Part shown: piece by piece, positions 5,157 to 27,227 of the stretch
How positions within the stretch are numbered: position 1 is the first letter of the stretch
Layout of the letters: every line of letters starts with the position of its first letter
Source: Escherichia coli
GTDB taxonomy: Bacteria; Pseudomonadota; Gammaproteobacteria; Enterobacterales; Enterobacteriaceae
DNA length: 64,000 bases
Direction: 5' to 3' (one strand)
Assembly (NCBI RefSeq): GCF_044324785.1
Contig: NZ_CP172127.1
Translations under genes and position numbers: made by a program
Notes under the pieces: model-generated
Databases searched by the model: none
Told to the model about the DNA's origin: nothing
What the model saw: only the letters and a program-made list of their open reading frames with translations

Positions 5157-7436
5157 ATGGATGACCAGTTAAAACAAAGTGCACTTGATTTCCATGAATT
5201 TCCAGTTCCAGGGAAAATCCAGGTTTCTCCAACCAAGCCTCTGGCAACGCAGCGCGATCTGGCGCTGGCCTACTCACCAGGCGTTGCCGCACCTTGTCTT
5301 GAAATCGAAAAAGACCCGTTAAAAGCCTACAAATATACCGCGCGCGGTAACCTGGTGGCGGTGATCTCTAACGGTACGGCGGTGCTGGGGTTAGGCAACA
5401 TTGGCGCGCTGGCAGGCAAACCGGTGATGGAAGGCAAGGGCGTTCTGTTTAAGAAATTCGCCGGGATTGATGTATTTGACATTGAAGTTGATGAACTCGA
5501 CCCGGACAAATTTATTGAAGTCGTCGCCGCGCTTGAACCGACCTTCGGCGGCATCAACCTCGAAGACATTAAAGCGCCAGAATGTTTCTATATTGAACAG
5601 AAACTGCGCGAGCGAATGAATATTCCGGTATTCCACGACGATCAGCACGGCACGGCAATCATCAGCACTGCCGCCATCCTCAACGGTTTGCGCGTGGTGG
5701 AGAAAAACATCTCCGACGTGCGGATGGTGGTTTCCGGCGCGGGTGCCGCAGCAATCGCCTGTATGAACCTGCTGGTAGCGCTGGGTCTGCAAAAACATAA
5801 CATCGTGGTTTGCGATTCAAAAGGCGTTATCTATCAGGGCCGTGAGCCAAACATGGCGGAAACCAAAGCCGCATATGCGGTGGTGGATGACGGCAAACGT
5901 ACCCTCGATGATGTGATTGAAGGCGCGGATATTTTCCTCGGCTGTTCCGGCCCGAAAGTGCTGACCCAGGAAATGGTGAAGAAAATGGCTCGTGCGCCAA
6001 TGATCCTGGCGCTGGCGAATCCGGAACCGGAAATTCTGCCGCCGCTGGCGAAAGAAGTGCGTCCGGATGCCATCATCTGCACCGGTCGTTCCGACTACCC
6101 GAACCAGGTGAACAACGTTCTTTGCTTCCCGTTCATCTTCCGTGGCGCGCTGGACGTTGGCGCAACCGCCATCAACGAAGAGATGAAACTGGCGGCGGTA
6201 CGCGCGATTGCAGAACTGGCCCATGCGGAACAGAGTGAAGTGGTGGCTTCAGCTTATGGCGATCAGGATCTGAGCTTTGGTCCGGAATACATCATTCCAA
6301 AACCGTTTGATCCGCGCTTGATCGTTAAGATCGCTCCTGCGGTCGCTAAAGCAGCGATGGAGTCGGGCGTGGCGACGCGTCCGATTGCTGATTTCGACGT
6401 CTACATCGACAAGCTGACGGAGTTCGTTTACAAAACCAACCTGTTTATGAAGCCGATTTTTTCCCAGGCTCGCAAAGCGCCGAAGCGCGTCGTTCTGCCG
6501 GAAGGGGAAGAGGCGCGCGTTCTGCATGCCACTCAGGAACTGGTAACGCTGGGGCTGGCGAAACCGATCCTTATCGGTCGTCCGAACGTGATCGAAATGC
6601 GCATTCAGAAACTGGGCTTGCAGATCAAAGCGGGCGTTGATTTTGAGATCGTCAATAACGAATCCGATCCGCGCTTTAAAGAGTACTGGACCGAATACTT
6701 CCAGATCATGAAGCGTCGCGGCGTCACTCAGGAACAGGCGCAGCGGGCGCTGATCAGTGACCCGACAGTGATTGGCGCGATCATGGTTCAGCGTGGCGAA
6801 GCCGATGCAATGATCTGCGGTACGGTGGGCGATTATCATGAACATTTTAGCGTGGTGAAAAATGTCTTTGGTTATCGCGATGGCGTTCACACCGCAGGTG
6901 CCATGAACGCGCTGCTGCTGCCGAGTGGTAACACCTTTATTGCCGATACTTACGTTAATGACGAACCAGACGCAGAAGAGCTTGCGGAGATCACCTTGAT
7001 GGCGGCAGAAACTGTTCGTCGTTTCGGTATTGAACCGCGCGTGGCTCTGTTGTCGCACTCCAACTTTGGTTCTTCTGACTGCCCGTCGTCGAGCAAAATG
7101 CGTCAGGCGCTGGAACTGGTCAGGGAACGTGCACCAGAACTGATGATTGATGGTGAAATGCACGGCGATGCAGCGCTGGTGGAAGCGATTCGCAGCGACC
7201 GTATGCCGGACAGCCCTTTGAAAGGTTCCGCTAATATTCTGGTGATGCCGAACATGGAAGCTGCCCGCATTAGTTACAACTTATTGCGCGTTTCCAGCTC
7301 GGAAGGTGTGACTGTCGGTCCGGTGCTGATGGGCGTGGCGAAACCGGTTCACGTGTTAACGCCGATCGCATCGGTACGTCGTATCGTCAACATGGTGGCG
7401 CTGGCTGTGGTTGAAGCACAAACCCAACCGCTGTAA
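5157..7436 (+). CDS. maeB: NADP-dependent malic enzyme (malic enzyme domain fused to a phosphotransacetylase-like domain)
   Basis: 759-aa [32 protein letters not shown]...; length and sequence match MaeB. Confidence 0.9.
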
Positions 7437-7453
7437 TTCATTCTTAACTCTCA

Positions 7454-7488
7454 CGCTTACCCTGAATATTCAGGGTAAGCGGTTTTCC
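7454..7488 (+). terminator. rho-independent terminator downstream of maeB
   Basis: Perfect inverted repeat cgcttaccctgaatattcagggtaagcg followed by gttttcc, 18 bp after the maeB stop. Confidence 0.6.
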
Positions 7489-7728
7489 TGAAATATATTA
7501 GCAAAGCTTATTACTGAGTTTGCGAATAATAAAAAAAGCAGTATATAAAATATCTCGATATTATTTTATTTATATTCATGCCTCGCATATGAAAGTTTAT
7601 TCATAACAGTAAATATCTCTCCATTCTTAGTGATCTACCTCACCTTTTAAACGCGCTTGCCGAATTTTGTTATTTACTCTGACGAAAAATTGTCACGATA
7701 CACGAAAGTTTTTCACAGGCGGCGACTC
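7489..7728 (+). promoter_or_regulatory. AT-rich control region upstream of eutS (eut operon main promoter / EutR target region)
   Basis: 240 bp strongly AT-rich intergenic DNA immediately upstream of the first eut gene; exact -10/-35 and EutR site not resolved by eye. Confidence 0.35.
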
Positions 7729-8064
7729 ATGGATAAAGAACGCATCATTCAGGAATTTGTGCCCGGTAAACAGGTCACACTGGCGCATCTCATCGCGCAT
7801 CCCGGCGAGGAACTGGCGAAGAAAATCGGCGTTCCGGATGCGGGCGCAATCGGCATTATGACGCTAACTCCTGGCGAAACGGCGATGATCGCCGGTGATT
7901 TAGCACTAAAAGCCGCCGATGTGCATATCGGTTTTCTCGACCGTTTTAGCGGCGCGTTGGTGATTTATGGCTCGGTGGGTGCAGTAGAAGAAGCGTTATC
8001 ACAAACCGTCAGCGGTTTAGGGCGTTTATTAAATTATACGCTTTGTGAAATGACCAAAAGTTAA
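7729..8064 (+). CDS. eutS: ethanolamine utilisation microcompartment shell protein (permuted BMC domain)
   Basis: 111 aa from ATG at 7729 ([32 protein letters not shown]...); first gene of the eut operon. Confidence 0.85.
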
Positions 8065-8076
8065 TACGAGGCATTC

Positions 8077-8556
8077 ATGAAACGAATTGCGTTTGTGGGT
8101 ACCGTCGGGGCAGGAAAAACAACGTTATTTAATGCGTTGCAGGGAGATTATACCCTCGCCAGAAAAACGCAGGCCGTAGAATTTAATGATAAGGGTGATA
8201 TTGATACGCCGGGTGAATATTTTAGCCATCCCCGCTGGTATCACGCCTTAATTACCACGCTACAGGATGTGGACATGCTGATCTATGTCCACGGCGCGAA
8301 TGACCCGGAAAGTCGGTTGCCTGCCGGGTTGCTGGATATTGGCGTCAGCAAACGGCAAATCGCCGTCATCAGTAAAACGGACATGCCAGATGCTGACGTC
8401 GCCGCAACGCGAAAGTTATTGCTTGAGACGGGCTTCGAAGAGCCGATTTTCGAGCTAAACAGCCACGACCCGCAAAGCGTGCAGCAACTGGTGGATTATC
8501 TGGCATCTCTCACCGAACAGGAGGAAGCAGGTGAAAAAACTCATTACAGCGAATGA
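8077..8556 (+). CDS. eutP: ethanolamine utilisation P-loop GTPase/acetate kinase-like protein
   Basis: 159 aa, Walker A motif GTVGAGKTT; operon position. Confidence 0.85.
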   Translation: MKRIAFVGTVGAGKTTLFNALQGDYTLARKTQAVEFNDKGDIDTPGEYFSHPRWYHALITTLQDVDMLIYVHGANDPESRLPAGLLDIGVSKRQIAVISKTDMPDADVAATRKLLLETGFEEPIFELNSHDPQSVQQLVDYLASLTEQEEAGEKTHYSE

Positions 8557-9232
8557 TATTCGTGAAGCACACGCGCGCGGCGAACAGGCAATGTCCGTGG
8601 TTCTGCGCGCCAGCATTATTACCCCGGAAGCCCGTGAAGTGGCGGATCTGTTGGGTTTTACCATCACTGAATGTGATGAATCGACTGCGGTAACGACGTC
8701 TGTTCCCGCCAGCGTGCCAGCCGATAAAACCGAAAGCCAGCGCATCCGCGAAACCATCATCGCCCAGCTGCCGGAAGGCCAGTTTACCGAAAGCCTGGTC
8801 GCGCAGCTGATGGAAAAAGTGATGAAGGAAAAACAGTCACTGGAGCAGGGTGCAATGCAGCCGAGTTTCAAATCGGTTACCGGCAAAGGCGGCATCAAAG
8901 TTATTGATGGCAGCAGCGTCAAGTTTGGTCGTTTTGACGGCGCACAGCCACACTGCGTCGGATTAACGGATCTGGTCACCGGAGACGACGGCAGCAGCAT
9001 GGCCGCTGGTTTTATGCAGTGGGAGAACGCCTTCTTCCCGTGGACCCTGAACTATGACGAAATCGACATGGTACTGGAAGGGGAACTGCACGTTCGCCAC
9101 GAAGGCGAAACCATGATCGCCAAAGCAGGCGACGTGATGTTTATCCCGAAAGGCTCCAGCATCGAATTTGGTACGACATCCAGCGTGAAATTCCTGTATG
9201 TCGCCTGGCCGGCTAACTGGCAATCCCTATGA
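8531..9232 (+). CDS. eutQ: ethanolamine utilisation cupin-domain protein (acetate kinase activity reported)
   Basis: 233-aa ORF with GTG start overlapping the eutP end; MKKLITANDIREAHARGEQ... Confidence 0.85.
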   Translation: MKKLITANDIREAHARGEQAMSVVLRASIITPEAREVADLLGFTITECDESTAVTTSVPASVPADKTESQRIRETIIAQLPEGQFTESLVAQLMEKVMKEKQSLEQGAMQPSFKSVTGKGGIKVIDGSSVKFGRFDGAQPHCVGLTDLVTGDDGSSMAAGFMQWENAFFPWTLNYDEIDMVLEGELHVRHEGETMIAKAGDVMFIPKGSSIEFGTTSSVKFLYVAWPANWQSL

Positions 9233-10032
9233 AAGATTTCATCACCGAAGCATGGCTAAGAGCGAACCATACGCTCAGCGAAGGCGCAGAGATCCATCTC
9301 CCTGCGGACAGTCGCCTGACGCCCTCTGCCCGGGAGTTGCTGGAAAGCCGCCATCTGCGCATCAAGTTTATTGACGAGCAGGGCCGCCTGTTTGTTGACG
9401 ATGAACAGCAGCAGCCGCAGCCCGTTCATGGGCTGACCAGTAGCGATGAACATCCGCAGGCGTGCTGCGAACTGTGCCGCCAGCCGGTGGCGAAAAAGCC
9501 GGATACGCTGACTCACCTGTCGGCGGAAAAAATGGTCGCCAAAAGCGATCCGCGCCTGGGTTTTCGCGCTGTTCTCGACAGCACCATTGCGCTGGCAGTG
9601 TGGCTGCAAATTGAACTGGCAGAACCGTGGCAGCCATGGCTGGCGGACATCCGCTCGCGTCTTGGCAACATTATGCGCGCCGATGCGCTGGGGGAACCGC
9701 TGGCCTGCCAGGCGATTGTCGGGCTTTCTGACGAAGATCTGCATCGGCTTTCTCACCAGCCGCTGCGCTATCTTGGTCACGATCATCTGGTGCCGGAAGC
9801 CAGCCACGGGCGCGATGCGGCGTTGCTCAATCTGCTACGCACCAAAGTGCGGGAAACCGAAACCGTGGCGGCGCAGGTCTTTATCACCCGCAGCTTTGAA
9901 GTATTACGCCCGGACATCTTGCAGGCGCTGAACCGCCTTTCCAGCACGGTCTACGTGATGATGATCCTGAGCGTAGCGAAACAACCGCTAACGGTGAAGC
10001 AGATCCAACAACGACTGGGGGAAACGCAATGA
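9229..10032 (+). CDS. eutT: ethanolamine utilisation corrinoid adenosyltransferase
   Basis: 267-aa ORF, ATGA overlap with eutQ; Cys-rich motif [11 protein letters not shown]; operon position. Confidence 0.85.
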
Positions 10033-11045
10033 TTATTGAACGTTGTCGTGAACTGGCGTTGCGAGCGCCCGCCAGAGTGGTATTTCCGGATGCGTTAGAT
10101 CAACGTGTGCTGAAAGCTGCGCAATATTTACATCAACAAGGTCTGGCAACGCCCATTCTGGTCGCCAATCCGTTTGAACTTCGTCAGTTTGCGCTCAGTC
10201 ACGGCGTGGCGATGGACGGGCTACAGGTGATAGATCCGCATGGCAACCTCGCAATGCGGGAAGAATTTGCTCTCCGCTGGCTGGCCCGTGCGGGCGAAAA
10301 AACGCCGCCGGATGCGCTGGAAAAACTCACCGATCCGCTGATGTTCGCTGCCGCAATGGTCAGCGCCGGGACAGCGGATGTTTGCATTGCGGGCAATCTC
10401 TCTTCCACGGCGAATGTGCTGCGTGCCGGATTACGCATTATTGGCTTACAGCCAGGCTGTAAAACGCTCTCCTCCATTTTCCTGATGCTGCCGCAGTACA
10501 GCGGCCCGGCGTTGGGCTTTGCCGATTGCAGCGTGGTGCCACAGCCGACGGCGGCGCAGCTGGCGGATATCGCGCTTGCCAGCGCCGAAACCTGGCGCGC
10601 CATCACCGGAGAAGAGCCGCGCGTGGCGATGTTGTCGTTTTCCAGTAACGGCAGCGCCCGTCACCCCTGCGTTGCCAACGTCCAGCAGGCGACAGAAATC
10701 GTCCGTGAGCGCGCGCCGCAGTTGGTAGTCGATGGCGAGTTGCAGTTTGACGCCGCCTTCGTGCCGGAAGTGGCGGCGCAAAAAGCGCCTGCCAGCCCAC
10801 TACAAGGCAAAGCCAATGTGATGGTTTTTCCGTCGCTGGAAGCCGGAAATATTGGCTACAAAATCGCACAACGACTCGGCGGATATCGTGCCGTCGGGCC
10901 ATTGATACAAGGACTTGCCGCGCCGATGCACGATCTCTCTCGTGGTTGTAGCGTGCAGGAAATTATCGAGCTGGCGCTGGTGGCAGCTGTGCCGCGTCAG
11001 ACAGAAGTAAACCGTGAAAGCAGTTTACAAACACTGGTTGAATGA
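10029..11045 (+). CDS. eutD: phosphotransacetylase of the eut pathway
   Basis: 338 aa, PTA family; ATGA overlap with eutT. Confidence 0.85.
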
Positions 11046-11083
11046 ACGGTCCCGTTCTGGACCCTGATAAAGAGGAAAGCACA

Positions 11084-11377
11084 ATGGAAGCATTAGGAAT
11101 GATCGAAACCCGGGGCCTGGTTGCACTGATTGAGGCTTCTGACGCGATGGTGAAAGCTGCGCGCGTCAAGCTGGTTGGTGTTAAGCAGATTGGCGGCGGC
11201 CTGTGTACTGCCATGGTTCGTGGTGATGTTGCAGCCTGTAAAGCCGCGACCGACGCAGGTGCTGCAGCGGCACAGCGTATCGGCGAGCTGGTATCTGTAC
11301 ACGTTATCCCGCGTCCGCACGGCGACCTGGAAGAAGTCTTCCCGATCGGCCTCAAAGGCGATAGCAGCAACCTGTAA
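11084..11377 (+). CDS. eutM: BMC-H hexameric microcompartment shell protein
   Basis: 97 aa from internal Met: [40 protein letters not shown]... (canonical BMC domain). Confidence 0.9.
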
Positions 11378-11483
11378 TCACCCTGTGTGACGTCGATTCG
11401 GGCGTCACGCTCTCTCCTTTTTCATTTTACCTTCCGCGGAGGGTAGGGGGAGCTTTTACCTGAAATACGCCACGGAGGCGGGT

Positions 11484-11771
11484 ATGAAACTGGCAGTCGT
11501 CACTGGACAAATTGTTTGTACCGTACGCCATCACGGACTGGCGCATGACAAATTGCTGATGGTGGAAATGATTGATCCACAAGGTAATCCTGACGGGCAA
11601 TGCGCCGTCGCCATCGACAATATTGGCGCGGGAACCGGGGAGTGGGTGTTGCTGGTGAGTGGCAGTTCCGCCCGCCAGGCGCATAAAAGCGAAACGTCAC
11701 CGGTCGATCTGTGCGTGATTGGCATCGTCGATGAGGTGGTGTCTGGCGGTCAGGTAATTTTCCACAAATAA
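11484..11771 (+). CDS. eutN: BMC vertex (pentamer-type) shell protein
   Basis: 95 aa MKLAVVTGQIVCTVRHHGLAHDKLLMVEMIDPQGNP...; EutN/CcmL family. Confidence 0.9.
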   Translation: MKLAVVTGQIVCTVRHHGLAHDKLLMVEMIDPQGNPDGQCAVAIDNIGAGTGEWVLLVSGSSARQAHKSETSPVDLCVIGIVDEVVSGGQVIFHK

Positions 11772-11782
11772 GGCAGAACATC

Positions 11783-13186
11783 ATGAATCAACAGGATATT
11801 GAACAGGTGGTGAAAGCGGTACTGCTGAAAATGCAAAGCAGTGACACGCCGCCCGCCGCCGTTCATGAGATGGGCGTTTTCGCGTCCCTGGATGACGCCG
11901 TTGCGGCAGCCAAAATTGCCCAGCAAGGGTTAAAAAGCGTGGCAATGCGCCAGTTAGCCATTGCTGCCATTCGTGAGGCAGGCGAAAAACACGCCAGAGA
12001 TTTAGCGGAACTTGCCGTCAGTGAAACCGGCATGGGCCGCGTCGAAGATAAATTTGCCAAAAACGTCGCTCAGGCGCGCGGCACACCAGGCGTTGAGTGC
12101 CTCTCTCCGCAAGTGCTGACAGGCGACAACGGCCTGACTTTAATTGAAAACGCGCCCTGGGGCGTGGTGGCTTCGGTGACGCCTTCCACTAACCCGGCGG
12201 CAACCGTAATTAACAACGCCATCAGCCTGATTGCCGCGGGCAACAGCGTCATTTTTGCCCCGCATCCGGCGGCGAAAAAAGTCTCCCAGCGGGCGATTAC
12301 GCTGCTCAACCAGGCGATTGTTGCCGCAGGCGGGCCGGAAAACTTACTGGTTACTGTGGCCAATCCGGATATCGAAACCGCACAACGCTTGTTCAAGTTT
12401 CCGGGTATTGGCCTTTTGGTGGTGACCGGCGGCGAAGCGGTAGTAGAAGCGGCGCGTAAACACACCAATAAACGTCTGATTGCCGCAGGTGCCGGTAACC
12501 CGCCGGTAGTGGTGGATGAAACCGCCGACCTCGCCCGTGCCGCTCAGTCCATCGTTAAAGGTGCTTCTTTCGATAACAACATCATTTGTGCCGACGAAAA
12601 GGTACTGATTGTTGTTGATAGCGTAGCCGATGAACTGATGCGTCTGATGGAAGGCCAGCACGCGGTGAAACTGACCGCAGAGCAGGCGCAGCAGCTACAA
12701 CCGGTGTTGCTGAAAAATATCGACGAGCGCGGAAAAGGCACCGTCAGCCGTGACTGGGTTGGTCGCGATGCGGCGAAAATCGCGGCGGCAATCGGCCTTA
12801 AAGTTCCGGAACAAACGCGACTGCTGTTTGTGGAAACCACTGCAGAACATCCGTTTGCCGTGACTGAACTGATGATGCCGGTGCTGCCCGTCGTGCGCGT
12901 CGCCAACGTGGCGGATGCCATTGCGCTGGCGGTGAAACTGGAAGGCGGTTGCCACCACACGGCGGCAATGCACTCGCGCAATATCGAGAACATGAACCAG
13001 ATGGCGAATGCCATTGATACCAGCATTTTCGTTAAGAACGGACCGTGCATTGCCGGGCTGGGGCTGGGCGGGGAAGGCTGGACCACCATGACCATCACCA
13101 CGCCAACCGGTGAAGGGGTAACCAGCGCGCGGACGTTTGTCCGTCTGCGTCGCTGTGTATTAGTCGATGCGTTTCGCATTGTTTAA
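11783..13186 (+). CDS. eutE: CoA-acylating acetaldehyde dehydrogenase
   Basis: 467-aa aldehyde dehydrogenase family ORF at the expected operon position. Confidence 0.9.
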   Translation: MNQQDIEQVVKAVLLKMQSSDTPPAAVHEMGVFASLDDAVAAAKIAQQGLKSVAMRQLAIAAIREAGEKHARDLAELAVSETGMGRVEDKFAKNVAQARGTPGVECLSPQVLTGDNGLTLIENAPWGVVASVTPSTNPAATVINNAISLIAAGNSVIFAPHPAAKKVSQRAITLLNQAIVAAGGPENLLVTVANPDIETAQRLFKFPGIGLLVVTGGEAVVEAARKHTNKRLIAAGAGNPPVVVDETADLARAAQSIVKGASFDNNIICADEKVLIVVDSVADELMRLMEGQHAVKLTAEQAQQLQPVLLKNIDERGKGTVSRDWVGRDAAKIAAAIGLKVPEQTRLLFVETTAEHPFAVTELMMPVLPVVRVANVADAIALAVKLEGGCHHTAAMHSRNIENMNQMANAIDTSIFVKNGPCIAGLGLGGEGWTTMTITTPTGEGVTSARTFVRLRRCVLVDAFRIV

Positions 13187-13196
13187 GGAGTAACCG

Positions 13197-14033
13197 ATGG
13201 CGCACGACGAACAATGGCTCACCCCTCGACTGCAAACGGCGGCAACGCTGTGTAACCAGACGCCCGCCGCGACGGAATCTCCGCTGTGGCTGGGGGTGGA
13301 TCTGGGCACCTGCGATGTGGTGTCGATGGTTGTCGACTGCGACGGTCAGCCGGTGGCGGTATGTCTCGACTGGGCCGATGTGGTCCGCGACGGCATCGTC
13401 TGGGATTTCTTCGGTGCGGTCACCATTGTTCGTCGCCATCTCGACACCCTCGAGCAGCAATTCGGTCGCCGTTTTAGCCATGCGGCGACCTCTTTTCCTC
13501 CAGGTACGGATCCGCGTATTTCCATCAACGTGCTGGAGTCTGCCGGGCTGGAAGTGAGCCATGTGCTGGATGAGCCAACCGCAGTCGCGGATCTGCTGCA
13601 ACTGGACAACGCCGGTGTAGTGGATATCGGCGGCGGCACCACCGGCATTGCCATCGTGAAAAAGGGCAAGGTGACTTACTCGGCAGATGAAGCCACCGGC
13701 GGACATCATATCTCTCTGACTCTCGCCGGAAATCGCCGTATTTCGCTGGAAGAGGCGGAGCAGTACAAGCGCGGTCACGGTGAAGAGATTTGGCCTGCGG
13801 TGAAACCGGTGTACGAAAAAATGGCGGACATTGTCGCCCGGCATATTGAAGGGCAGGGCATTACTGATTTATGGCTGGCGGGCGGCTCTTGTATGCAACC
13901 GGGCGTGGCGGAACTGTTTCGCAAACAATTCCCGGCGTTACAGGTGCATTTACCGCAGCACAGTTTGTTTATGACCCCGCTGGCGATCGCCAGTAGCGGG
14001 CGAGAGAAAGCGGAGGGGCTATATGCAAAATGA
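13197..14033 (+). CDS. eutJ: ethanolamine utilisation chaperone-like protein (Hsp70/actin fold)
   Basis: 278 aa with DLGTCDVV and DIGGGTTGIAIV motifs. Confidence 0.85.
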   Translation: MAHDEQWLTPRLQTAATLCNQTPAATESPLWLGVDLGTCDVVSMVVDCDGQPVAVCLDWADVVRDGIVWDFFGAVTIVRRHLDTLEQQFGRRFSHAATSFPPGTDPRISINVLESAGLEVSHVLDEPTAVADLLQLDNAGVVDIGGGTTGIAIVKKGKVTYSADEATGGHHISLTLAGNRRISLEEAEQYKRGHGEEIWPAVKPVYEKMADIVARHIEGQGITDLWLAGGSCMQPGVAELFRKQFPALQVHLPQHSLFMTPLAIASSGREKAEGLYAK

Positions 14034-15210
14034 ATTGCAGACCGCGCTCTTTCAGGCGTTCGATACCCTGAATCTGCAACGGGTAAAAACATTTAGCGTT
14101 CCACCGGTGACGCTTTGCGGTCCGGGCGCGATGAGCAGTTGCGGGCAGCAAGCGCAAACGCGTGGGCTGAAACATCTGTTCGTGATGGCAGACAGCTTTT
14201 TGCATCAGGCGGGGATGACCGCCGGGCTGACGCGTAGCCTGGCCGTTAAAGGTATCGCCATGACGCTCTGGCCATGTCCGGTGGGCGAACCGTGCATCAC
14301 CGACGTGTGTGCAGCCGTGGCGCAGTTGCGTGAATCAGGTTGTGACGGGGTGATCGCGTTTGGCGGCGGCTCGGTGCTGGATGCGGCGAAAGCCGTGGCG
14401 TTGCTGGTGACAAACCCGGATAGCACGCTGGCAGAAATGTCAGAAACCAGCGTTCTGCAACCGCGCCTGCCGTTGATTGCCATTCCAACGACCGCCGGAA
14501 CCGGCTCTGAAACCACCAACGTAACGGTGATTATCGACGCGGTGAGCGAGCGCAAGCAGGTGTTAGCCCATGCCTCGCTGATGCCGGATGTGGCGATTCT
14601 TGACGCCGCATTGACCGAAGGTGTGCCGTCGCATGTCACGGCGATGACCGGTATCGACGCGTTAACTCATGCCATTGAAGCGTACAGCGCGCTGAACGCC
14701 ACACCGTTTACCGACAGTCTGGCGATTGGCGCTATTGCGATGATTGGCAAATCGCTGCCGAAAGCGGTGGGCTACGGTCACGACCTTGCCGCGCGCGAGA
14801 GCATGTTGCTGGCTTCATGTATGGCGGGAATGGCGTTTTCCAGTGCGGGGCTTGGGTTATGCCACGCGATGGCGCATCAGCCGGGGGCGGCGCTGCATAT
14901 TCCGCACGGTCTGGCGAACGCCATGCTACTGCCAACGGTGATGGAGTTTAACCGGATGGTCTGTCGTGATCGGTTTAGTCAGATTGGTCGGGCGCTGACA
15001 AACAAGAAAACTGACGAGCGCGAGGTAATTAGCGTGATAAGCGAGCTGATTGCGGAAGTTGGGATCAACAAGCGGCTGGCTGATGTGGGCGCAACCACCG
15101 GACATTACCGCGCATGGGCGCAGGCCGCGATGGAAGATATTTGTCTGCGCAGCAACCCGCGTACCGCCAGCCTGGAGCAGATTATTGGTCTGTATGCTGC
15201 GGCGCAATAA
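14023..15210 (+). CDS. eutG: iron-containing alcohol dehydrogenase of the eut pathway
   Basis: 395 aa, Fe-ADH family (GGGSVLDAAKAVA motif); overlaps the eutJ end. Confidence 0.85.
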   Translation: MQNELQTALFQAFDTLNLQRVKTFSVPPVTLCGPGAMSSCGQQAQTRGLKHLFVMADSFLHQAGMTAGLTRSLAVKGIAMTLWPCPVGEPCITDVCAAVAQLRESGCDGVIAFGGGSVLDAAKAVALLVTNPDSTLAEMSETSVLQPRLPLIAIPTTAGTGSETTNVTVIIDAVSERKQVLAHASLMPDVAILDAALTEGVPSHVTAMTGIDALTHAIEAYSALNATPFTDSLAIGAIAMIGKSLPKAVGYGHDLAARESMLLASCMAGMAFSSAGLGLCHAMAHQPGAALHIPHGLANAMLLPTVMEFNRMVCRDRFSQIGRALTNKKTDEREVISVISELIAEVGINKRLADVGATTGHYRAWAQAAMEDICLRSNPRTASLEQIIGLYAAAQ

Positions 15211-15216
15211 AAGTGT

Positions 15217-15328
15217 ACGGACAGTCCCCTCGCCCCTTTGGGGAGAGGGTTAGGGTGAGGGGAACAGAGTCGCGCCGGTGCAAACAATTACCCTCACCCC
15301 GGCCCCTCGGCTTCCAGAGTGAGGGAAA
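15217..15328. repeat. GC-rich imperfect-palindromic intergenic repeat (boxC-like), copy 2, with an extended inverted arm
   Basis: acggacagtcccctcgcccctttggggagagggttagggtgaggggaaca, then ccctcaccccggcccctcgg...gagtgaggg; sits in the 169-bp eutG-eutH gap inside the operon. Confidence 0.5.
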
Positions 15329-15379
15329 AACCCACTTTCAGCATTGGCAATAAATAACAACTAACAGGGAGTAAAGGTG

Positions 15380-16606
15380 ATGGGAATTAACGAAATCATC
15401 ATGTACATCATGATGTTCTTTATGCTGATAGCTGCCGTAGACAGGATCCTGTCGCAGTTCGGTGGTTCTGCTCGTTTCCTCGGTAAGTTCGGTAAAAGTA
15501 TCGAAGGATCAGGCGGTCAGTTCGAAGAAGGCTTTATGGCAATGGGCGCACTGGGCCTGGCGATGGTTGGTATGACCGCGCTGGCACCGGTACTGGCCCA
15601 CGTACTCGGGCCGGTGATTATCCCGGTTTACGAAATGCTCGGCGCAAACCCGTCAATGTTCGCCGGAACACTGCTGGCGTGCGATATGGGCGGCTTCTTC
15701 CTCGCCAAAGAGCTGGCGGGCGGCGACGTAGCAGCGTGGCTATACTCTGGGTTAATTCTCGGGTCGATGATGGGGCCAACGATTGTGTTTTCCATTCCGG
15801 TGGCGCTCGGCATTATCGAACCTTCTGACCGTCGTTATCTGGCGCTCGGCGTGCTGGCGGGCATTGTGACCATTCCAATTGGTTGTATCGCCGGTGGCCT
15901 GGTGGCTATGTACTCCGGTGTACAGATCAACGGCCAGCCGGTGGAATTCACCTTTGCGCTTATCCTGATGAACATGATCCCGGTACTTATCGTCGCGGTA
16001 CTGGTGGCGCTGGGGCTGAAATTCATCCCGGAAAAAATGATCAACGGCTTCCAGATCTTCGCCAAATTCCTCGTTGCATTGATCACCCTCGGTCTTGCTG
16101 CCGCGGTAGTGAAATTCCTGCTTGGCTGGGAACTGATCCCCGGTCTGGATCCTATCTTTATGGCCCCTGGCGATAAACCCGGTGAAGTGATGCGCGCCAT
16201 TGAAGTTATCGGTTCTATCTCCTGCGTTCTGTTAGGGGCGTACCCGATGGTACTGCTGCTGACTCGCTGGTTTGAAAAACCGCTGATGAGCGTCGGTAAG
16301 GTGCTGAATATGAACAATATCGCGGCAGCTGGCATGGTGGCAACGCTTGCCAACAACATCCCAATGTTTGGCATGATGAAGCTGATGGATACCCGCGGCA
16401 AAGTCATCAACTGCGCCTTCGCCGTTTCCGCTGCTTTCGCCCTGGGTGACCACTTAGGCTTCGCCGCTGCCAACATGAACGCCATGATTTTCCCGATGAT
16501 TGTCGGCAAATTGATCGGCGGCGTAACGGCGATTGGCGTGGCGATGATGCTGGTGCCAAAAGAAGACGCGACCGCGGCTAAAACCGAAGCGGAGGCACAA
16601 TCGTGA
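15380..16606 (+). CDS. eutH: ethanolamine permease/facilitator
   Basis: 408-aa polytopic membrane protein MGINEIIMYIMMFFMLIAAVDRIL... Confidence 0.85.
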   Translation: MGINEIIMYIMMFFMLIAAVDRILSQFGGSARFLGKFGKSIEGSGGQFEEGFMAMGALGLAMVGMTALAPVLAHVLGPVIIPVYEMLGANPSMFAGTLLACDMGGFFLAKELAGGDVAAWLYSGLILGSMMGPTIVFSIPVALGIIEPSDRRYLALGVLAGIVTIPIGCIAGGLVAMYSGVQINGQPVEFTFALILMNMIPVLIVAVLVALGLKFIPEKMINGFQIFAKFLVALITLGLAAAVVKFLLGWELIPGLDPIFMAPGDKPGEVMRAIEVIGSISCVLLGAYPMVLLLTRWFEKPLMSVGKVLNMNNIAAAGMVATLANNIPMFGMMKLMDTRGKVINCAFAVSAAFALGDHLGFAAANMNAMIFPMIVGKLIGGVTAIGVAMMLVPKEDATAAKTEAEAQS

Positions 16607-18006
16607 ACACTCGCCAGCTACTGAGCGTCGGTATCGATATCGGCACCACCACCACCCAGGTGATCTTCTCCCACCTGGAACTGGTTAACCGTGCGGCGGT
16701 GTCGCAGGTGCCGCGCTACGAATTCATCAAACGCGAAATTAGCTGGCAAAGCCCGGTGTTCTTTACCCCTGTCGATAAACAGGGTGGTTTAAAAGAAGCG
16801 GAACTGAAATCGCTGATTTTAGAGCAATATCAGGCTGCGGGCATTGCGCCGGAAAGCGTTGATTCTGGTGCCATCATCATCACCGGTGAAAGCGCGAAAA
16901 CCCGCAACGCTCGCCCGGCGGTGATGACGCTCTCCCAGTCGCTGGGCGATTTTGTCGTCGCCAGCGCCGGGCCGCATCTCGAATCCGTGATCGCCGGTCA
17001 CGGTGCCGGGGCGCAAACCCTTTCTGAACAACGGCTGTGTCGGGTACTGAATATCGACATCGGCGGTGGCACCGCGAACTACGCCCTGTTCGATGCCGGA
17101 AAAATCAGCGGCACTGCCTGCCTCAACGTTGGCGGTCGCCTGCTGGAAACCGACAGCCAGGGGCGCGTGGTTTACGCTCATATACCGGGGCAGATGATTG
17201 TGGATGAGTGCTTCGGTGCAGGCACTGACGCCCGTTCGCTGACCGGCACGCAGTTGGTGCAGGTTACCCGGCGGATGGCAGAACTGATTGTCGAAGTGAT
17301 TGACGGAACGCTCTCGCCGCTCGCGCAGGCATTGATGCAAACCGGTTTGTTGCCCGCAGGTGTTACGCCCGAAATCATTACGCTTTCTGGCGGCGTGGGC
17401 GAATGTTATCGCCACCAGCCCGCCGACCCGTTCTGTTTTGCCGATATCGGCCCGCTTCTGGCAACGGCGCTGCATGACCATCAGCGCCTGCGTGAGATGA
17501 ACGTGCAGTTTCCAGCGCAAACCGTGCGCGCCACGGTGATTGGCGCGGGCGCACATACCCTTTCGCTCTCTGGCAGCACAATCTGGCTGGAGGGCGTACA
17601 ACTGCCGCTGCGCAATTTGCCGGTGGCGATCCCAATTGATGAAACGGATCTGGTGAGTGCCTGGCAACAGGCGCTGATTCAGCTGGATCTTTGCCCCAAA
17701 ACTGACGCGTACGTGCTGGCGCTTCCCGCCTCGCTGCCTGTGCGTTACGCCGCGGTACTGACGGTCATCAACGCGCTGGTCGATTTCGTCGCGCGTTTTC
17801 CGAATCCGCATCCCCTGCTGGTGGTGGCCGGGCAGGACTTTGGTAAAGCTCTGGGCATGTTGTTGCGCCCACAGCTACAACAACTCCCGTTGGCAGTCAT
17901 TGACGAAGTGATTGTCCGCGCGGGGGACTATATCGACATTGGTACGCCTCTTTTTGGCGGATCGGTTGTGCCGGTGACGGTGAAATCACTCGCATTTCCT
18001 TCCTGA
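16603..18006 (+). CDS. eutA: ethanolamine ammonia-lyase reactivase
   Basis: 467-aa ORF with GTG start overlapping the eutH stop; operon position. Confidence 0.85.
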   Translation: MNTRQLLSVGIDIGTTTTQVIFSHLELVNRAAVSQVPRYEFIKREISWQSPVFFTPVDKQGGLKEAELKSLILEQYQAAGIAPESVDSGAIIITGESAKTRNARPAVMTLSQSLGDFVVASAGPHLESVIAGHGAGAQTLSEQRLCRVLNIDIGGGTANYALFDAGKISGTACLNVGGRLLETDSQGRVVYAHIPGQMIVDECFGAGTDARSLTGTQLVQVTRRMAELIVEVIDGTLSPLAQALMQTGLLPAGVTPEIITLSGGVGECYRHQPADPFCFADIGPLLATALHDHQRLREMNVQFPAQTVRATVIGAGAHTLSLSGSTIWLEGVQLPLRNLPVAIPIDETDLVSAWQQALIQLDLCPKTDAYVLALPASLPVRYAAVLTVINALVDFVARFPNPHPLLVVAGQDFGKALGMLLRPQLQQLPLAVIDEVIVRAGDYIDIGTPLFGGSVVPVTVKSLAFPS

Positions 18007-18017
18007 GGGAACGACTT

Positions 18018-19379
18018 ATGAAACTAAAGACCACATTGTTCGGCAATGTATATCAGTTTAAGGATGTAAAAGAGGTGCTGGCTAAAGCCAACGAACTGCG
18101 TTCGGGGGATGTGCTGGCGGGCGTTGCAGCGGCAAGCTCACAAGAGCGCGTGGCGGCAAAGCAGGTGTTGTCGGAAATGACCGTAGCGGACATCCGCAAT
18201 AATCCGGTGATTGCCTATGAAGATGACTGCGTGACGCGGCTGATTCAGGACGACGTTAACGAAACGGCCTACAACCAGATTAAAAACTGGAGCATCAGCG
18301 AACTGCGTGAGTATGTGCTGAGCGATGAAACCAGCGTGGACGACATTGCCTTTACCCGCAAAGGGCTGACCTCGGAAGTGGTCGCGGCGGTAGCGAAGAT
18401 TTGCTCCAACGCGGACCTGATCTACGGCGCGAAGAAAATGCCGGTAATCAAAAAGGCCAATACCACCATCGGTATTCCGGGCACCTTTAGCGCCCGTTTG
18501 CAGCCAAATGACACCCGTGACGACGTGCAAAGTATCGCCGCGCAAATCTACGAAGGGCTTTCCTTCGGGGTGGGCGATGCGGTGATCGGCGTTAACCCGG
18601 TGACTGACGATGTGGAAAACTTAAGCCGCGTGTTGGACACCATTTACGGCGTGATCGACAAATTCAACATTCCGACCCAGGGCTGCGTGCTGGCGCACGT
18701 CACCACCCAGATTGAAGCGATCCGTCGTGGCGCACCAGGCGGGCTGATTTTCCAGAGTATCTGCGGCAGCGAAAAAGGGCTGAAAGAATTTGGCGTGGAG
18801 CTGGCGATGCTCGATGAAGCACGCGCAGTGGGCGCGGAGTTCAACCGTATCGCCGGGGAAAACTGCCTCTACTTCGAAACCGGACAAGGCTCTGCGCTGT
18901 CCGCTGGCGCTAACTTCGGCGCAGACCAGGTGACGATGGAAGCACGTAACTATGGGCTGGCGCGTCATTACGATCCGTTTATCGTCAACACCGTGGTCGG
19001 CTTTATTGGGCCGGAGTATCTCTACAACGACCGCCAGATTATCCGTGCGGGCTTAGAAGATCACTTTATGGGTAAGCTGAGCGGCATCTCTATGGGCTGT
19101 GACTGCTGCTACACCAACCACGCTGACGCTGACCAGAACCTCAACGAAAACCTCATGATCCTGCTCGCCACCGCAGGCTGCAACTACATCATGGGGATGC
19201 CGCTGGGTGATGACATCATGCTCAACTACCAGACCACCGCCTTCCACGATACTGCCACTGTGCGTCAGTTACTCAACCTGCGCCCGTCACCGGAGTTTGA
19301 ACGCTGGCTGGAAAGCATGGGCATTATGGCAAACGGTCGCCTGACCAAACGGGCGGGCGATCCGTCACTGTTCTTCTGA
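18018..19379 (+). CDS. eutB: ethanolamine ammonia-lyase large subunit
   Basis: 453 aa MKLKTTLFGNVYQFKDVKEVLAKANELRSGD... Confidence 0.9.
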   Translation: MKLKTTLFGNVYQFKDVKEVLAKANELRSGDVLAGVAAASSQERVAAKQVLSEMTVADIRNNPVIAYEDDCVTRLIQDDVNETAYNQIKNWSISELREYVLSDETSVDDIAFTRKGLTSEVVAAVAKICSNADLIYGAKKMPVIKKANTTIGIPGTFSARLQPNDTRDDVQSIAAQIYEGLSFGVGDAVIGVNPVTDDVENLSRVLDTIYGVIDKFNIPTQGCVLAHVTTQIEAIRRGAPGGLIFQSICGSEKGLKEFGVELAMLDEARAVGAEFNRIAGENCLYFETGQGSALSAGANFGADQVTMEARNYGLARHYDPFIVNTVVGFIGPEYLYNDRQIIRAGLEDHFMGKLSGISMGCDCCYTNHADADQNLNENLMILLATAGCNYIMGMPLGDDIMLNYQTTAFHDTATVRQLLNLRPSPEFERWLESMGIMANGRLTKRAGDPSLFF

Positions 19380-19399
19380 TGACGCGGAGATAACACATC

Positions 19400-20284
19400 A
19401 TGGATCAAAAACAGATTGAAGAAATTGTACGCAGCGTGATGGCGTCAATGGGACAAGCGGCCCCCGCGCCGTCAGAAGCAAAGTGCGCCACCACCTATGC
19501 GGCACCGGTGACCTCGGAAAGCTGCGCGCTGGATTTAGGCTCTGCGGAAGCAAAAGCGTGGATTGGCGTTGAAAACCCGCATCGCGCAGACGTATTAACA
19601 GAACTGCGTCGCAGCACCGTGGCCCGCGTTTGTACCGGTCGTGCCGGTCCGCGTCCGCGTACCCAGGCGTTGCTGCGTTTCCTGGCCGATCACTCTCGTT
19701 CGAAAGATACCGTACTGAAAGAAGTGCCGGAAGAGTGGGTGAAAGCGCAGGGCTTGCTGGAAGTCCGCTCTGAAATTAGCGACAAAAATCTCTACCTGAC
19801 TCGTCCGGATATGGGCCGCCGCCTGTGTGCAGAAGCTGTTGAAGCGCTGAAAGCACAGTGTGTTGCTAATCCGGACGTGCAGGTCGTTATTTCTGATGGC
19901 CTGTCAACTGATGCGATCACCGTGAACTACGAAGAGATCCTGCCGCCGCTGATGGCGGGCCTGAAACAGGCCGGGCTGAAAGTCGGTACACCATTCTTTG
20001 TTCGTTATGGTCGCGTGAAGATTGAAGATCAGATCGGTGAGATCCTCGGCGCGAAAGTGGTGATCCTGCTGGTGGGGGAACGCCCGGGATTAGGGCAGTC
20101 AGAAAGCCTCTCCTGCTACGCCGTTTACTCGCCGCGTATGGCAACCACCGTTGAGGCCGATCGCACCTGCATCTCTAACATTCACCAGGGCGGCACGCCG
20201 CCGGTTGAAGCCGCAGCCGTCATTGTGGATTTGGCGAAACGTATGCTGGAGCAGAAAGCATCCGGCATCAACATGACCCGATAA
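19400..20284 (+). CDS. eutC: ethanolamine ammonia-lyase small subunit
   Basis: 294 aa [18 protein letters not shown]...; follows eutB. Confidence 0.9.
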
Positions 20285-20293
20285 GGAGGCATC

Positions 20294-20953
20294 ATGCCAG
20301 CTTTAGATTTGATTCGACCGTCGGTAACCGCCATGCGGGTGATTGCCTCCGTTAACGCCGAATTTGCGCGTGAACTGAAATTGCCGCCGCATATTCGTAG
20401 CCTCGGGCTGATTTCTGCTGATTCCGATGACGTCACCTACATTGCGGCTGACGAAGCGACCAAGCAGGCGATGGTGGAAGTGGTGTATGGACGCTCGCTG
20501 TATGCGGGAGCCGCACACGGCCCGTCACCGACTGCCGGTGAAGTGCTGATTATGCTTGGTGGGCCAAACCCGGCGGAAGTGCGTGCTGGTCTGGATGCGA
20601 TGGTTGCGCATATTGAAAATGGCGCGGCTTTCCAGTGGGCTAATGACGCAGAAAACACAGCCTTCCTGGCACATGTAGTTTCGCGTACCGGTTCTTATCT
20701 CTCATCAACCGCCGGGATCACGCTTGGCGATCCGATGGCGTATCTGGTGGCACCGCCGCTGGAAGCGACCTATGGCATTGATGCAGCCCTGAAATCTGCC
20801 GACGTGCAACTGGTGACCTACGTACCGCCGCCGTCTGAAACCAACTACTCGGCAGCATTTTTAACCGGTAGCCAGGCCGCGTGTAAAGCAGCCTGTAACG
20901 CCTTTACCGATGCAGTGCTGGAAATCGCGCGTAATCCAATCCAGCGTGCGTAA
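20294..20953 (+). CDS. eutL: BMC-T tandem-domain microcompartment shell protein
   Basis: 219 aa [57 protein letters not shown]... Confidence 0.9.
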
Positions 20954-20965
20954 CGGAGGTTGCCG

Positions 20966-21466
20966 ATGATCAATGCACTGGGATTGCTGGAAGTGGACGG
21001 CATGGTCGCCGCGATAGATGCTGCGGATGCCATGCTCAAAGCAGCTAACGTTCGTCTGCTCAGTCACGAAGTGCTTGACCCTGGTCGCCTAACGCTGGTG
21101 GTGGAAGGCGATCTGGCGGCGTGTCGTGCGGCGCTGGACGCAGGTTGTGCTGCCGCGATGCGTACCGGGCGTGTCATCAGCCGTAAGGAGATCGGTCGGC
21201 CAGACGATGACACCCAGTGGCTGGTTACTGGCTTTAACCGCCAGCCGAAGCAACCCGTAAAGGAACCCGACGCGCCAGTTATCGTCGCGGAATCTGCTGA
21301 CGAGTTGTTGGCGCTGTTAACATCAGTACGTCAGGGAATGACGGCAGGAGAAGTGGCTGCCCACTTTGGCTGGCCGCTGGAAAAAGCCAGAAATGCGCTC
21401 GAACAGCTCTTTTCTGCCGGGACGTTACGTAAACGCAGTAGTCGTTATCGTCTCAAGCCCCATTAA
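20966..21466 (+). CDS. eutK: BMC-H shell protein with C-terminal extension
   Basis: 166 aa from ATG at 20966 (MINALGLLEVDGMVAAIDAADAMLKAANV...), GGAGG 7 nt upstream; track ORF starts 6 nt earlier at a TTG. Confidence 0.85.
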   Translation: MINALGLLEVDGMVAAIDAADAMLKAANVRLLSHEVLDPGRLTLVVEGDLAACRAALDAGCAAAMRTGRVISRKEIGRPDDDTQWLVTGFNRQPKQPVKEPDAPVIVAESADELLALLTSVRQGMTAGEVAAHFGWPLEKARNALEQLFSAGTLRKRSSRYRLKPH

Positions 21467-21511
21467 CCTGTCGGAGGTGCCGGGTGTCCTACAACACCCG
21501 GCATTAACATC

Positions 21512-22564
21512 ATGAAAAAGACCCGTACAGCCAATTTGCACCATCTTTATCATGAACCCTTACCCGAAAACCTGAAGCTCACGCCGAAGGTCGAAGTGGA
21601 TAATGTTCATCAACGACAGACAACGGATGTCTATGAACATGCTTTGACAATTACCGCCTGGCAGCAGATTTACGATCAGCTGCATCCGGGCAAGTTTCAT
21701 GGTGAATTTACGGAAATTCTACTCGATGATATTCAGGTTTTTCGTGAATACACCGGTCTGGCGCTGCGTCAGTCGTGCCTGGTCTGGCCGAACTCGTTCT
21801 GGTTTGGCATTCCGGCGACGCGCGGTGAGCAGGGATTTATCGGTTCGCAATGTCTGGGAAGTGCAGAAATAGCCACGCGGCCTGGCGGCACTGAGTTTGA
21901 ATTGAGTACGCCGGACGATTACACCATCCTTGGCGTGGTGCTTTCTGAAGATGTCATTACCCGGCAGGCTAACTTTTTGCATAACCCGGAGCGGGTGTTG
22001 CATATGTTGCGTCACCAGTCGGCGCTGGAAGTGAAAGAGCAGCATAAAGCCGCGCTGTGGGGCTTTGTCCAACAGGCGCTGGCGACGTTTTGCGAGAACC
22101 CGGAAAATCTCCATCAGCCTGCAGTGCGAAAAGTGTTGGGGGATAATTTGCTCATGGCGATGGGGGCGATGCTGGAAGAAGCGCAACCAATGGTGACGGC
22201 GGAAAGCATCAGTCATCAGAGTTACCGTAGATTACTTTCCCGCGCCCGTGAATATGTGCTGGAAAATATGTCTGAGCCGGTGACGGTGCTGGACTTGTGT
22301 AATCAACTGCATGTCAGTCGCCGCACGCTACAAAACGCGTTTCACGCTATTTTAGGCATTGGCCCGAACGCGTGGCTGAAACGCATTCGCCTGAACGCCG
22401 TACGCCGCGAACTGATAAGCCCGTGGTCGCAAAGCACAACGGTAAAAGACGCCGCCATGCAGTGGGGATTCTGGCATCTGGGGCAATTCGCCACGGATTA
22501 CCAGCAGCTGTTTGCCGAGAAGCCGTCACTGACGCTGCATCAGCGGATGCGGGAATGGGGGTGA
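21512..22564 (+). CDS. eutR: AraC-family transcriptional activator of the eut operon
   Basis: 350 aa, C-terminal AraC-type HTH; last gene of the operon. Confidence 0.85.
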
Positions 22565-22569
22565 GGGAG

Positions 22570-23472
<903 letters not shown>

Positions 23473-24342
23473 TTACCGCTTTCTCGAGTGTGCTTTCTGG
23501 TTGTCAAACCAGTGAAAATAACTGATCACGCCTTCGGCAATCGCTGTGGCGATTTTCTGGCGAAATGCTGCCGTGCCTAACAGCCGCTCTTCTTCCGGGT
23601 TGGTGATAAACGAGGTTTCCACCAGCACCGAAGGAACCGACGGCGATTTCAACACCACAAACGCGGCTTGTTCGGTGTTGCGGCTGTGCAGTTTATGCAC
23701 CGGCTTAATCTTTTTCAGAATATGCGAGCCGAGCGTCAGGCTGTTTTTAATAGTATCGGTTTGCACCAGATCAAACAGCACTTGCTGCAATAGGTGATCC
23801 TTGTCAGTCGCCTTTTTACCGGCAACTTCATCGGCGCGGTTTTCGCGTTCAGACAGGTATTTCGCCATTGCGCTACTTGCCCCACGGTTAGAGAGGGCAA
23901 ATACCGAAGCACCGGCAGCTTTCGGGTTGGTAAAGCCGTCGGCATGAATTGACATAAACAGATCTGCGCCATGTTTATGGGCGATTTCAACGCGATCGTA
24001 AAGTGGGATAAACGTATCGCCAGAACGCGTTAAACGCGCATCAATCCCATGATTACGCAAAATGGAACGGACGTTTTTAGCAATCGCCAGCACCACATGT
24101 TTTTCTTTCGAACCGTTGCGCCCGATCGCTCCGGTATCAATCCCGCCGTGGCCTGGATCGAGAACAACGACACGTTTGCCGCCAGATTTTTTGGCTTTCG
24201 GCTTGCTGTGTCCGTTGCTGGTTTTTAAAGGTTCGTCTTTGGCGATGGCTTGCGACATTCCTGACAACGTCAGCGCTGCAAGTCCTGCTTTCAGCACCTG
24301 GCGGCGCGAAGTGAGTGTTTTTAGTGGTTTAAAAGTGCTCAT
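23473..24342 (-). CDS. amiA: N-acetylmuramoyl-L-alanine amidase A (Tat-exported)
   Basis: 289 aa with twin-arginine signal (SRRQVLKAGLAAL); immediately upstream of hemF. Confidence 0.9.
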   Translation of the reverse strand: MSTFKPLKTLTSRRQVLKAGLAALTLSGMSQAIAKDEPLKTSNGHSKPKAKKSGGKRVVVLDPGHGGIDTGAIGRNGSKEKHVVLAIAKNVRSILRNHGIDARLTRSGDTFIPLYDRVEIAHKHGADLFMSIHADGFTNPKAAGASVFALSNRGASSAMAKYLSERENRADEVAGKKATDKDHLLQQVLFDLVQTDTIKNSLTLGSHILKKIKPVHKLHSRNTEQAAFVVLKSPSVPSVLVETSFITNPEEERLLGTAAFRQKIATAIAEGVISYFHWFDNQKAHSRKR

Positions 24343-24555
24343 ACGGCCTGAGTTGTAATAATAAAGTTCCAGATGTTATATCGTATCGCGTAATCCGTTA
24401 CGACCGTTTGCTGTTGAGAATTGTTTTACTTTTCATTTCAATAGTTGACAACTCCCCATTATGCCACTTTTTCAACCGATTTTCGTCAGATATTGGCTAA
24501 TTCGACCGTTCACGCCATAATCAGCCTTTTAACCCGCAAAAAGGTAACGAATACC

Positions 24556-24981
24556 ATGGAGATACGCGTATTTCGCCAGGAAGATTTCGAAGAGGTCATC
24601 ACCCTTTGGGAGCGTTGCGACTTGCTGCGTCCGTGGAACGATCCGGAAATGGACATCGAGCGTAAGATGAACCATGACGTCAGTTTGTTTCTGGTCGCTG
24701 AGGTGAACGGTGAAGTGGTCGGAACGGTGATGGGCGGTTATGACGGGCATCGCGGGTCTGCTTATTATCTTGGCGTGCATCCAGAGTTTCGTGGGCGTGG
24801 GATTGCTAATGCGTTGCTTAATCGGCTGGAGAAAAAGCTGATTGCTCGCGGCTGCCCGAAAATTCAGATCAACGTGCCGGAAGATAACGACATGGTGCTC
24901 GGAATGTATGAACGCCTGGGATATGAACACGCCGACGTGCTGAGTCTGGGTAAGCGTTTGATTGAAGATGAAGAGTACTGA
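24556..24981 (+). CDS. ypeA: GNAT-family N-acetyltransferase
   Basis: 141 aa from ATG at 24556 ([23 protein letters not shown]...); GNAT motifs. Confidence 0.8.
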
Positions 24982-25417: not shown

Positions 25418-25477
25418 CGGCACTTTTTGGTGAATTTGCACTCCAAGCAACGTTATTGAATAACCAAAGGAAGTGAC

Positions 25478-26053: not shown

Positions 26054-26064
26054 TTTGCGTCTGA

Positions 26065-27223: not shown

Positions 27224-27227
27224 ATTA

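Follow-up and report, generated by a model that had tools for sequence, protein, structure and literature searches.

Does the eut locus in this stretch of the Escherichia coli chromosome encode a complete ethanolamine microcompartment system, and is the position at which the K-12 reference strain MG1655 carries the cryptic prophage CPZ-55 unoccupied? The locus extends on the plus strand from the ATG of eutS (position 7729) to the stop codon of eutR (22564) of the window, i.e. the whole 64,000-nt stretch of contig NZ_CP172127.1 that was analysed. Based on gene content, profile matches and junction alignments, the region almost certainly represents the chromosomal EUT1-type eut microcompartment operon of E. 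coli, intact and with an empty CPZ-55/IntZ attachment site. The operon and its insertion site have already been described, and earlier publications likewise cover the attachment core, how common CPZ-55 is (about 8%) and the requirement for an uninterrupted operon. A first-pass annotation of this DNA, made from the sequence alone, had described the system as well characterized and not novel, a view upheld by the published literature on the eut operon and CPZ-55.

Gene content and integrity of the eut operon

Seventeen co-directional open reading frames (ORFs) in the order eutSPQTDMNEJGHABCLKR, with no internal stop codons, were identified at the locus, and their start and stop positions agree with the RefSeq annotation of E. 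coli O166:H15 (JNE070796) and MG1655. A search against NCBIfam profiles placed all 17 products above the curated cut-off at essentially full length. Gene order was collinear with the reference genomes gene by gene and all frames were open. The statement in the first-pass annotation that 17 intact, co-directional genes occur in this order was thus confirmed by the ORFs, profile matches and references, and the loss of collinearity that it had named as grounds for rejecting this claim was not observed. The flanking genes, maeB (5157-7436, plus strand) upstream and hemF and amiA (minus strand) downstream, are the same in all E. coli references compared. For the per-gene comparison with K-12, strain ATCC 43886 served as the 'K-12-type' reference (12 of the 17 Eut proteins share a RefSeq accession with the K-12 record). 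Protein lengths matched those of O166:H15 and the K-12-type reference for 16 of the 17 products, the exception being EutC, with 294 instead of 295 amino acids.

Both subunits of the signature B12-dependent ethanolamine ammonia-lyase (EutB and EutC) were found above cut-off, as were the cofactor-recycling core (EutE, EutD and EutG) and the proteins that provide B12 support (EutA and EutT). The shell set was shown to be represented by PF00936 domains in EutS, EutM, EutK and EutL (two in EutL) and by PF03319 in EutN, with NCBIfam hits at the equivalog or subfamily level. The last gene encodes EutR (NF007522), and an Rfam scan of the whole window returned tRNAs only (six, all outside the operon), with no riboswitch or other structured RNA family; the locus is thus of the enterobacterial type, in which EutR is encoded last and the EutVW two-component system and a riboswitch are lacking.

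Inter-gene distances from eutS to eutR were 12, -26, -4, -4, 38, 106, 11, 10, -11, 169, -4, 11, 20, 9, 12 and 45 nt (negative values denote overlaps). The junctions had been described in the first-pass annotation as short or overlapping, which applies to 14 of the 16 and not to the longer eutM-eutN (106 nt) and eutG-eutH (169 nt) spacers. Two of the overlaps, eutP/eutQ (26 nt) and eutH/eutA (4 nt), are annotated in the references as well.

An unoccupied CPZ-55/IntZ attachment site

In MG1655, the 6,790-bp prophage CPZ-55 (2558691-2565480; genes intZ and yffL-yffS) is annotated between the two genes, bounded by the eutA stop codon on one side and ending 11 nt short of the eutB start on the other. 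The window contains only an 11-nt eutA-eutB gap (18007-18017, GGGAACGACTT), exactly as previously noted, with no remnant of an element inside it. The window junction was aligned with both MG1655 CPZ-55 junctions, a comparison already proposed in the first-pass annotation, and the bacterial-side sequence was shown to be identical (100%), through ...TTTCCTTCCTGA at the eutA side and from GGGAACGACTTATG at the eutB side. Alignment and annotation together confirmed that CPZ-55 lies between eutA and eutB in MG1655 and that the window is in the uninserted state, and the alignment defined the insertion point and an 8-bp repeat.

This octamer, CTTCCTGA, is a direct repeat found at both ends of CPZ-55, and the attachment core was for this reason assigned to the last 8 nt of eutA. 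The window accordingly presents the arrangement of a bacterial attachment site (attB), in which the core overlaps the eutA stop codon and is followed by the 11-nt spacer and then eutB, neither intZ nor yff genes intervening. The 8-bp duplication at CPZ-55 was previously published as TCAGGAAG (PMC6379469). The earlier suggestion that this junction displays the likely attachment sequence therefore stands in that the site is empty and located, but the duplicated core is not the 11-nt spacer but the 8 nt upstream of it. The eutB-side prophage end weakly resembles, with gaps, the preceding 3' end of eutA (AATCA-TCG-ATT-CTTCCTGA vs AATCACTCGCATTTCCTTCCTGA), and the BLAST match runs 23 nt into this end. 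Together with the tyrosine integrase encoded by intZ, this resemblance fits site-specific integration better than transposition.

Table 1. Features of the eut locus and its spacers (window coordinates; profile scores in bits against the curated cut-off)
Feature	Position	Strand	Evidence and remarks
Strong terminator-like hairpin and T-run just 3' of maeB	7454-7481/7491	+	12-bp stem CGCTTACCCTGA/TCAGGGTAAGCG, then GTTTTCC; present also in K-12-type sequence
maeB-eutS intergenic region, 292 nt	7437-7728	+	275/293 identical to K-12-type; 93 nt adjoining eutS identical
eutS, shell protein (BMC domain)	7729-8064	+	NF012012, 247 vs 123, positions 1-111/111; PF00936; 111/111 identical to references
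eutP, EutP/PduV-family GTPase-like acetate kinase	8077-8556	+	NF012011, 348 vs 258, full length
eutQ, cupin-type acetate kinase	8531-9232	+	GTG start; 26-nt overlap with eutP as in MG1655; NF012001, 500 vs 193; PF06249
eutT, corrinoid adenosyltransferase	9229-10032	+	NF011595, 569 vs 226, full length; Cob_adeno_trans domain (Pfam)
eutD, phosphotransacetylase	10029-11045	+	NF007233, 408 vs 310; 337/338 identical to O166:H15
eutM, major hexameric shell protein	11084-11377	+	NF012018, 213 vs 133; PF00936; 97/97 identical to references
eutM-eutN spacer	11378-11483	+	GC-rich hairpin 11385-11410, then T-rich run (to 11420); terminator-like; 105/106 identical to K-12-type
eutN, pentameric vertex protein	11484-11771	+	NF011992, 210 vs 118; PF03319 (EutN_CcmL)
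eutE, coenzyme A (CoA)-acylating acetaldehyde dehydrogenase	11783-13186	+	NF011927, 738 vs 403
eutJ, actin/Hsp70-fold chaperone-like protein	13197-14033	+	NF011660, 400 vs 182
eutG, iron-type alcohol dehydrogenase	14023-15210	+	NF011998, 869 vs 556; 394/395 identical to O166:H15, 94.2% to K-12-type allele
eutG-eutH spacer, 169 nt	15211-15379	+	GC-rich dispersed repeat replacing sequence of the repetitive extragenic palindromic (REP)/bacterial interspersed mosaic element (BIME) type of K-12
eutH, ethanolamine membrane transporter	15380-16606	+	NF011665, 869 vs 574, positions 1-408/408
eutA, ethanolamine ammonia-lyase reactivase	16603-18006	+	GTG start; NF007991, 1064 vs 799; PF06277
Unoccupied core of CPZ-55/IntZ attachment site, CTTCCTGA	17999-18006	+	3'-terminal 8 nt of eutA, TGA included; repeated at both CPZ-55 ends (MG1655) and both ATCC 43886 island ends
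eutA-eutB spacer, 11 nt, GGGAACGACTT	18007-18017	+	eutB-side arm of attachment site; holds eutB ribosome-binding region; remains beside eutB in MG1655
eutB, ethanolamine ammonia-lyase large subunit	18018-19379	+	NF011649, 665 vs 554; PF06751; 453/453 identical to O166:H15
eutC, ethanolamine ammonia-lyase small subunit	19400-20284	+	NF003971, 340 vs 230; PF05985; N-terminal encapsulation peptide; one codon short
eutL, tandem-BMC-domain trimeric shell protein	20294-20953	+	NF011934, 402 vs 198; two PF00936 stretches
eutK, shell protein with C-terminal EutK_C domain	20966-21466	+	NF012010, 362 vs 218; PF00936 and PF16365
eutR, AraC-family activator of the operon, last gene	21512-22564	+	NF007522, 789 vs 319, positions 1-350/350

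Predicted function of the operon

Established knowledge of these protein families and the cited papers provide the steps of a probable mechanism. EutR, together with ethanolamine and adenosylcobalamin, would activate the promoter upstream of eutS, while expression of eutR is maintained by a weak internal promoter, as described in PMC7617246. Ethanolamine admitted by EutH would be split into ammonia and acetaldehyde by EutBC inside a shell composed of EutS, EutM, EutK, EutL and EutN, with EutA predicted to reactivate the lyase and EutT to adenosylate the corrinoid. EutE would then produce acetyl-CoA, and EutG and EutD would recycle oxidized nicotinamide adenine dinucleotide (NAD+) and CoA inside the shell, with presumed roles for EutP and EutQ as acetate kinases and for EutJ as an accessory chaperone-like protein. 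The 8-bp core (CTTCCTGA) at which IntZ-type tyrosine integrases would act includes the stop codon of eutA; with no element integrated here, only 11 nt separate eutA from eutB, and eutBCLKR could be transcribed together with the genes upstream.

The consequences of an occupied site have been documented in K-12 derivatives. Strain BW25113 (eut::CPZ-55) was found not to grow on ethanolamine as nitrogen source and to regain growth once the prophage had been removed without a scar, Eut compartments were shown to form in a W3110 stock whose operon is uninterrupted, and an uninterrupted operon was reported to be needed for growth on ethanolamine (PMC11334477). BW25113 is described in PMC7617246 as inducing eutS and eutR and not eutB, and as forming no compartments.

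Regarding expression, the terminator-like hairpin after maeB would separate maeB transcription from the eut promoter region, and the maeB-eutS intergenic region is the expected site of the main EutR-dependent promoter (PI), a role assigned from the literature (PMC7617246). The eutK-eutR spacer is identical to the K-12-type sequence at 45 of 45 positions. Residues 1-32 of EutC are identical to the K-12-type protein, a stretch that covers the encapsulation peptide, which was previously delimited as EutC1-20 and which gave puncta when fused to green fluorescent protein (PMC11334477). Because the 93 promoter-proximal nucleotides, the eutK-eutR spacer and EutC residues 1-32 are unchanged relative to the K-12-type sequence, the operon is rated as very probably functional.

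Several observations weigh against this reading. Divergence of the encoded proteins from alleles of tested function reaches 5.8% (EutG), and a rare one-codon deletion is present in the EutC linker, where N33 is deleted and C34 is replaced by Y compared with the K-12-type protein (TT-N-C-AA to TT-Y-AA; codons 33-34, window 19496-19501). A gap-free match to this in-frame 3-nt deletion was obtained in ~10 of the 5,426 complete E. coli genomes that constitute the prevalence sample (e.g. PT62, VCSW5/7 and MB53). In strain N3, eutT contains an internal stop (locus 10413-11216) and eutR a frameshift (22699-23750); both are annotated as pseudogenes there and are intact in the window, and eut operons thus decay in some natural lineages even without the prophage. 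A promoter scan upstream of eutS revealed no strong sigma-70 consensus, which is weak or uninformative evidence, since an activator-dependent promoter is expected to lack one.

One alternative is that the operon, despite its intact appearance, is not expressed or does not work in this strain, owing to missense changes, to the EutC linker deletion or to a eutG-eutH spacer that blocks downstream expression. The rarity of the combined N33 deletion and C34Y change and the pseudogenized eutT and eutR of the near relative N3 would be in line with such a scenario, as would the replacement of the eutG-eutH spacer by a different structured repeat that cannot be aligned to the 216-nt spacer of the K-12 type. 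This alternative is nevertheless improbable. All proteins are full length and score far above the equivalog cut-offs, with no stops or frameshifts; the EutC change falls in the linker that joins the encapsulation peptide to the catalytic domain, upstream of the catalytic-domain profiles, which begin at residue 64 (Pfam) and 51 (NCBIfam); and the same spacer, pieces of which match ~7 places per genome, is common to 303 of the 5,426 genomes, indicative of a shared variant and not a private lesion.

The locus is of value for annotation only: it identifies the window as part of the E. coli core chromosome, presumably encoding a working ethanolamine pathway, which is associated with fitness in the gut and urinary tract, and it displays the wild-type arrangement that is obscured by the K-12 reference annotation. 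No open question is made testable by it.

Occupancy of the eutA-eutB junction across E. coli

The prevalence sample was searched with a 411-nt probe centred on the eutA-eutB junction, and a contiguous (i.e. empty) junction was detected in 4,964 genomes (91.5%). A probe for the MG1655 eutA/CPZ-55 junction was complete in 232 genomes, while ~212 further genomes matched it at 90-95% identity, reaching ~80 nt into a related element. In total, an IntZ-type element, either K-12-type CPZ-55 or a related island, occupies the junction in ~444 genomes. Most of the species thus has the site empty, and the window is not special in this respect. CPZ-55 was previously reported in 8% of 638 strains (PMC6379469), and the eutA-eutB position has been termed a "prophage insertion hot spot" (PMC6652756).

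Among the ~212 genomes with this similar left junction is ATCC 43886, where a 10.3-kb IntZ-type element (locus 20202-30504) flanked by the CTTCCTGA repeat occupies the eutA/eutB site and encodes the intZ integrase, IS1, a murI-like gene, a gadC-like antiporter and a pyridoxal phosphate-dependent decarboxylase pseudogene. In the same strain, eutA is interrupted by an internal stop, and the annotated eutB lacks 8 codons. It is conceivable, though improbable, that the eutA stop/eutB junction serves as an attB dedicated to a broader family of IntZ-type islands whose cargo varies (the yff genes of CPZ-55 in K-12; murI-like, gadC-like and decarboxylase genes in ATCC 43886) and which would switch ethanolamine catabolism off by integrating and on again by excising precisely; the window would then represent the 'on' state, with the EutC linker variant and the alternative eutG-eutH repeat possibly tuning expression or encapsulation. 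Nothing in the window itself bears on the reversible switch or the cargo, and these would be the only new aspects if the proposal were true, the hot-spot idea having already been published (PMC6652756).

The empty site could also have arisen by precise excision of an earlier IntZ element instead of never having been occupied. CPZ-55 is known to leave precisely in K-12 derivatives, as exemplified by ER2796, which lost it by 'precise excision' (PMC4444293) and displays a contiguous junction in the probe search described above, and such a scarless event would be invisible in sequence. Excision is nonetheless very unlikely here, as the empty state of 91.5% of genomes is ancestral by parsimony and the 11-nt gap holds no element remnant. 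Equally little credence can be given to a loose reading of the first-pass annotation in which the 11-nt spacer GGGAACGACTT is itself the attachment or crossover sequence: the MG1655 annotation does set the CPZ-55 boundary at the spacer edge, but the spacer is single-copy in MG1655, beside eutB, the repeat found at both ends is the upstream CTTCCTGA, and the ATCC 43886 island and PMC6379469 likewise give this core.

Comparison with known eut loci and relatives

The closest known systems are uninterrupted E. coli eut loci (e.g. O166:H15 JNE070796, Nissle 1917 and the W3110 stock of PMC11334477), with the same 17 genes, order, overlaps, flanks and 11-nt spacer. The window differs from these loci by its allele mosaic (≤98.3% identity overall) and by a EutC that is one codon shorter, while its Eut proteins are 98-100% identical to those of O166:H15. 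All 17 eut genes are also common to K-12 MG1655/BW25113 (eut::CPZ-55), with identical sequences around the eutA stop and eutB start. In K-12, however, eutA and eutB are split by CPZ-55 (6,790 bp, CTTCCTGA-flanked), the eutG-eutH spacer is of the REP type (216 nt, compared with 169 nt and another repeat in the window), and the EutG allele is 94.2% identical. The element of ATCC 43886 has its target in this CTTCCTGA core, too, at the stop codon of eutA; the 10.3-kb island is absent from the window. A further close counterpart is the eut operon of Salmonella enterica LT2, presumably with the same 17 genes in the same order; the 17-gene operon of Salmonella was reportedly described by Kofoid et al. 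1999.

The operon matched 5,425 of the 5,426 genomes, 5,175 of them with a single match covering at least 80%, at 95-99% identity, and the best overall operon identity was 98.3%, to strain N3, the genome nearest to the window overall. Over its full 64 kb, the window runs collinear with N3 at 97.7-99.5%, save for two absent segments. Identity to three references, calculated per 500 nt, formed a patchwork of 95-100%; the operon is an allele mosaic generated by recombination, as is usual for E. coli core genes. A source outside E. coli, considered because of the low best identity, was rejected in view of the collinearity with N3 and the mosaic nature of the operon. An insertion was considered behind the two-piece 20.9-kb N3 match and was likewise rejected; the match is an artefact that joins a second copy of a 56-nt repeat (1818-1873), and the operon is collinear.

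This 56-nt unit opens the eutG-eutH spacer, which folds strongly (minimum free energy of -56 kcal/mol over 169 nt), and its second copy, identical at 52 of 56 nt (92.9%), is located between ypfG and tktB, as judged by collinearity with N3. The unit presumably resembles the 56-bp 'boxC' intergenic repeat. In the eutM-eutN spacer, the conserved hairpin could, speculatively, act as a partial terminator or mRNA stabilizer that sets the EutM:EutN ratio.

Other features of the window

Outside the operon, yfeS (encoding a WGR-domain protein; ~957 bp in N3) is absent between cysM and yfeK (36525/36526). The yfeN-xapA-xapB-xapR segment (4.4 kb in N3 and K-12) is also absent, being replaced by a 404-nt segment (48263-48666) between yfeR and tRNA-Lys that is annotated elsewhere as a FlxA-like family protein; 1,306 of the 5,426 genomes, E. 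coli 042 among them, share this arrangement. K-12 has pbp4b (yfeW) between yfeX and murP; the window lacks this gene (~27048-27226), and so does N3, where only an 87-nt gene fragment is annotated. Two tRNA clusters near gltX occupy their usual E. coli positions, namely Lys(ttt)-Val(tac)x3 at 48713-49110 (minus strand) and Ala(ggc)x2 at 51809-51999 (plus strand).

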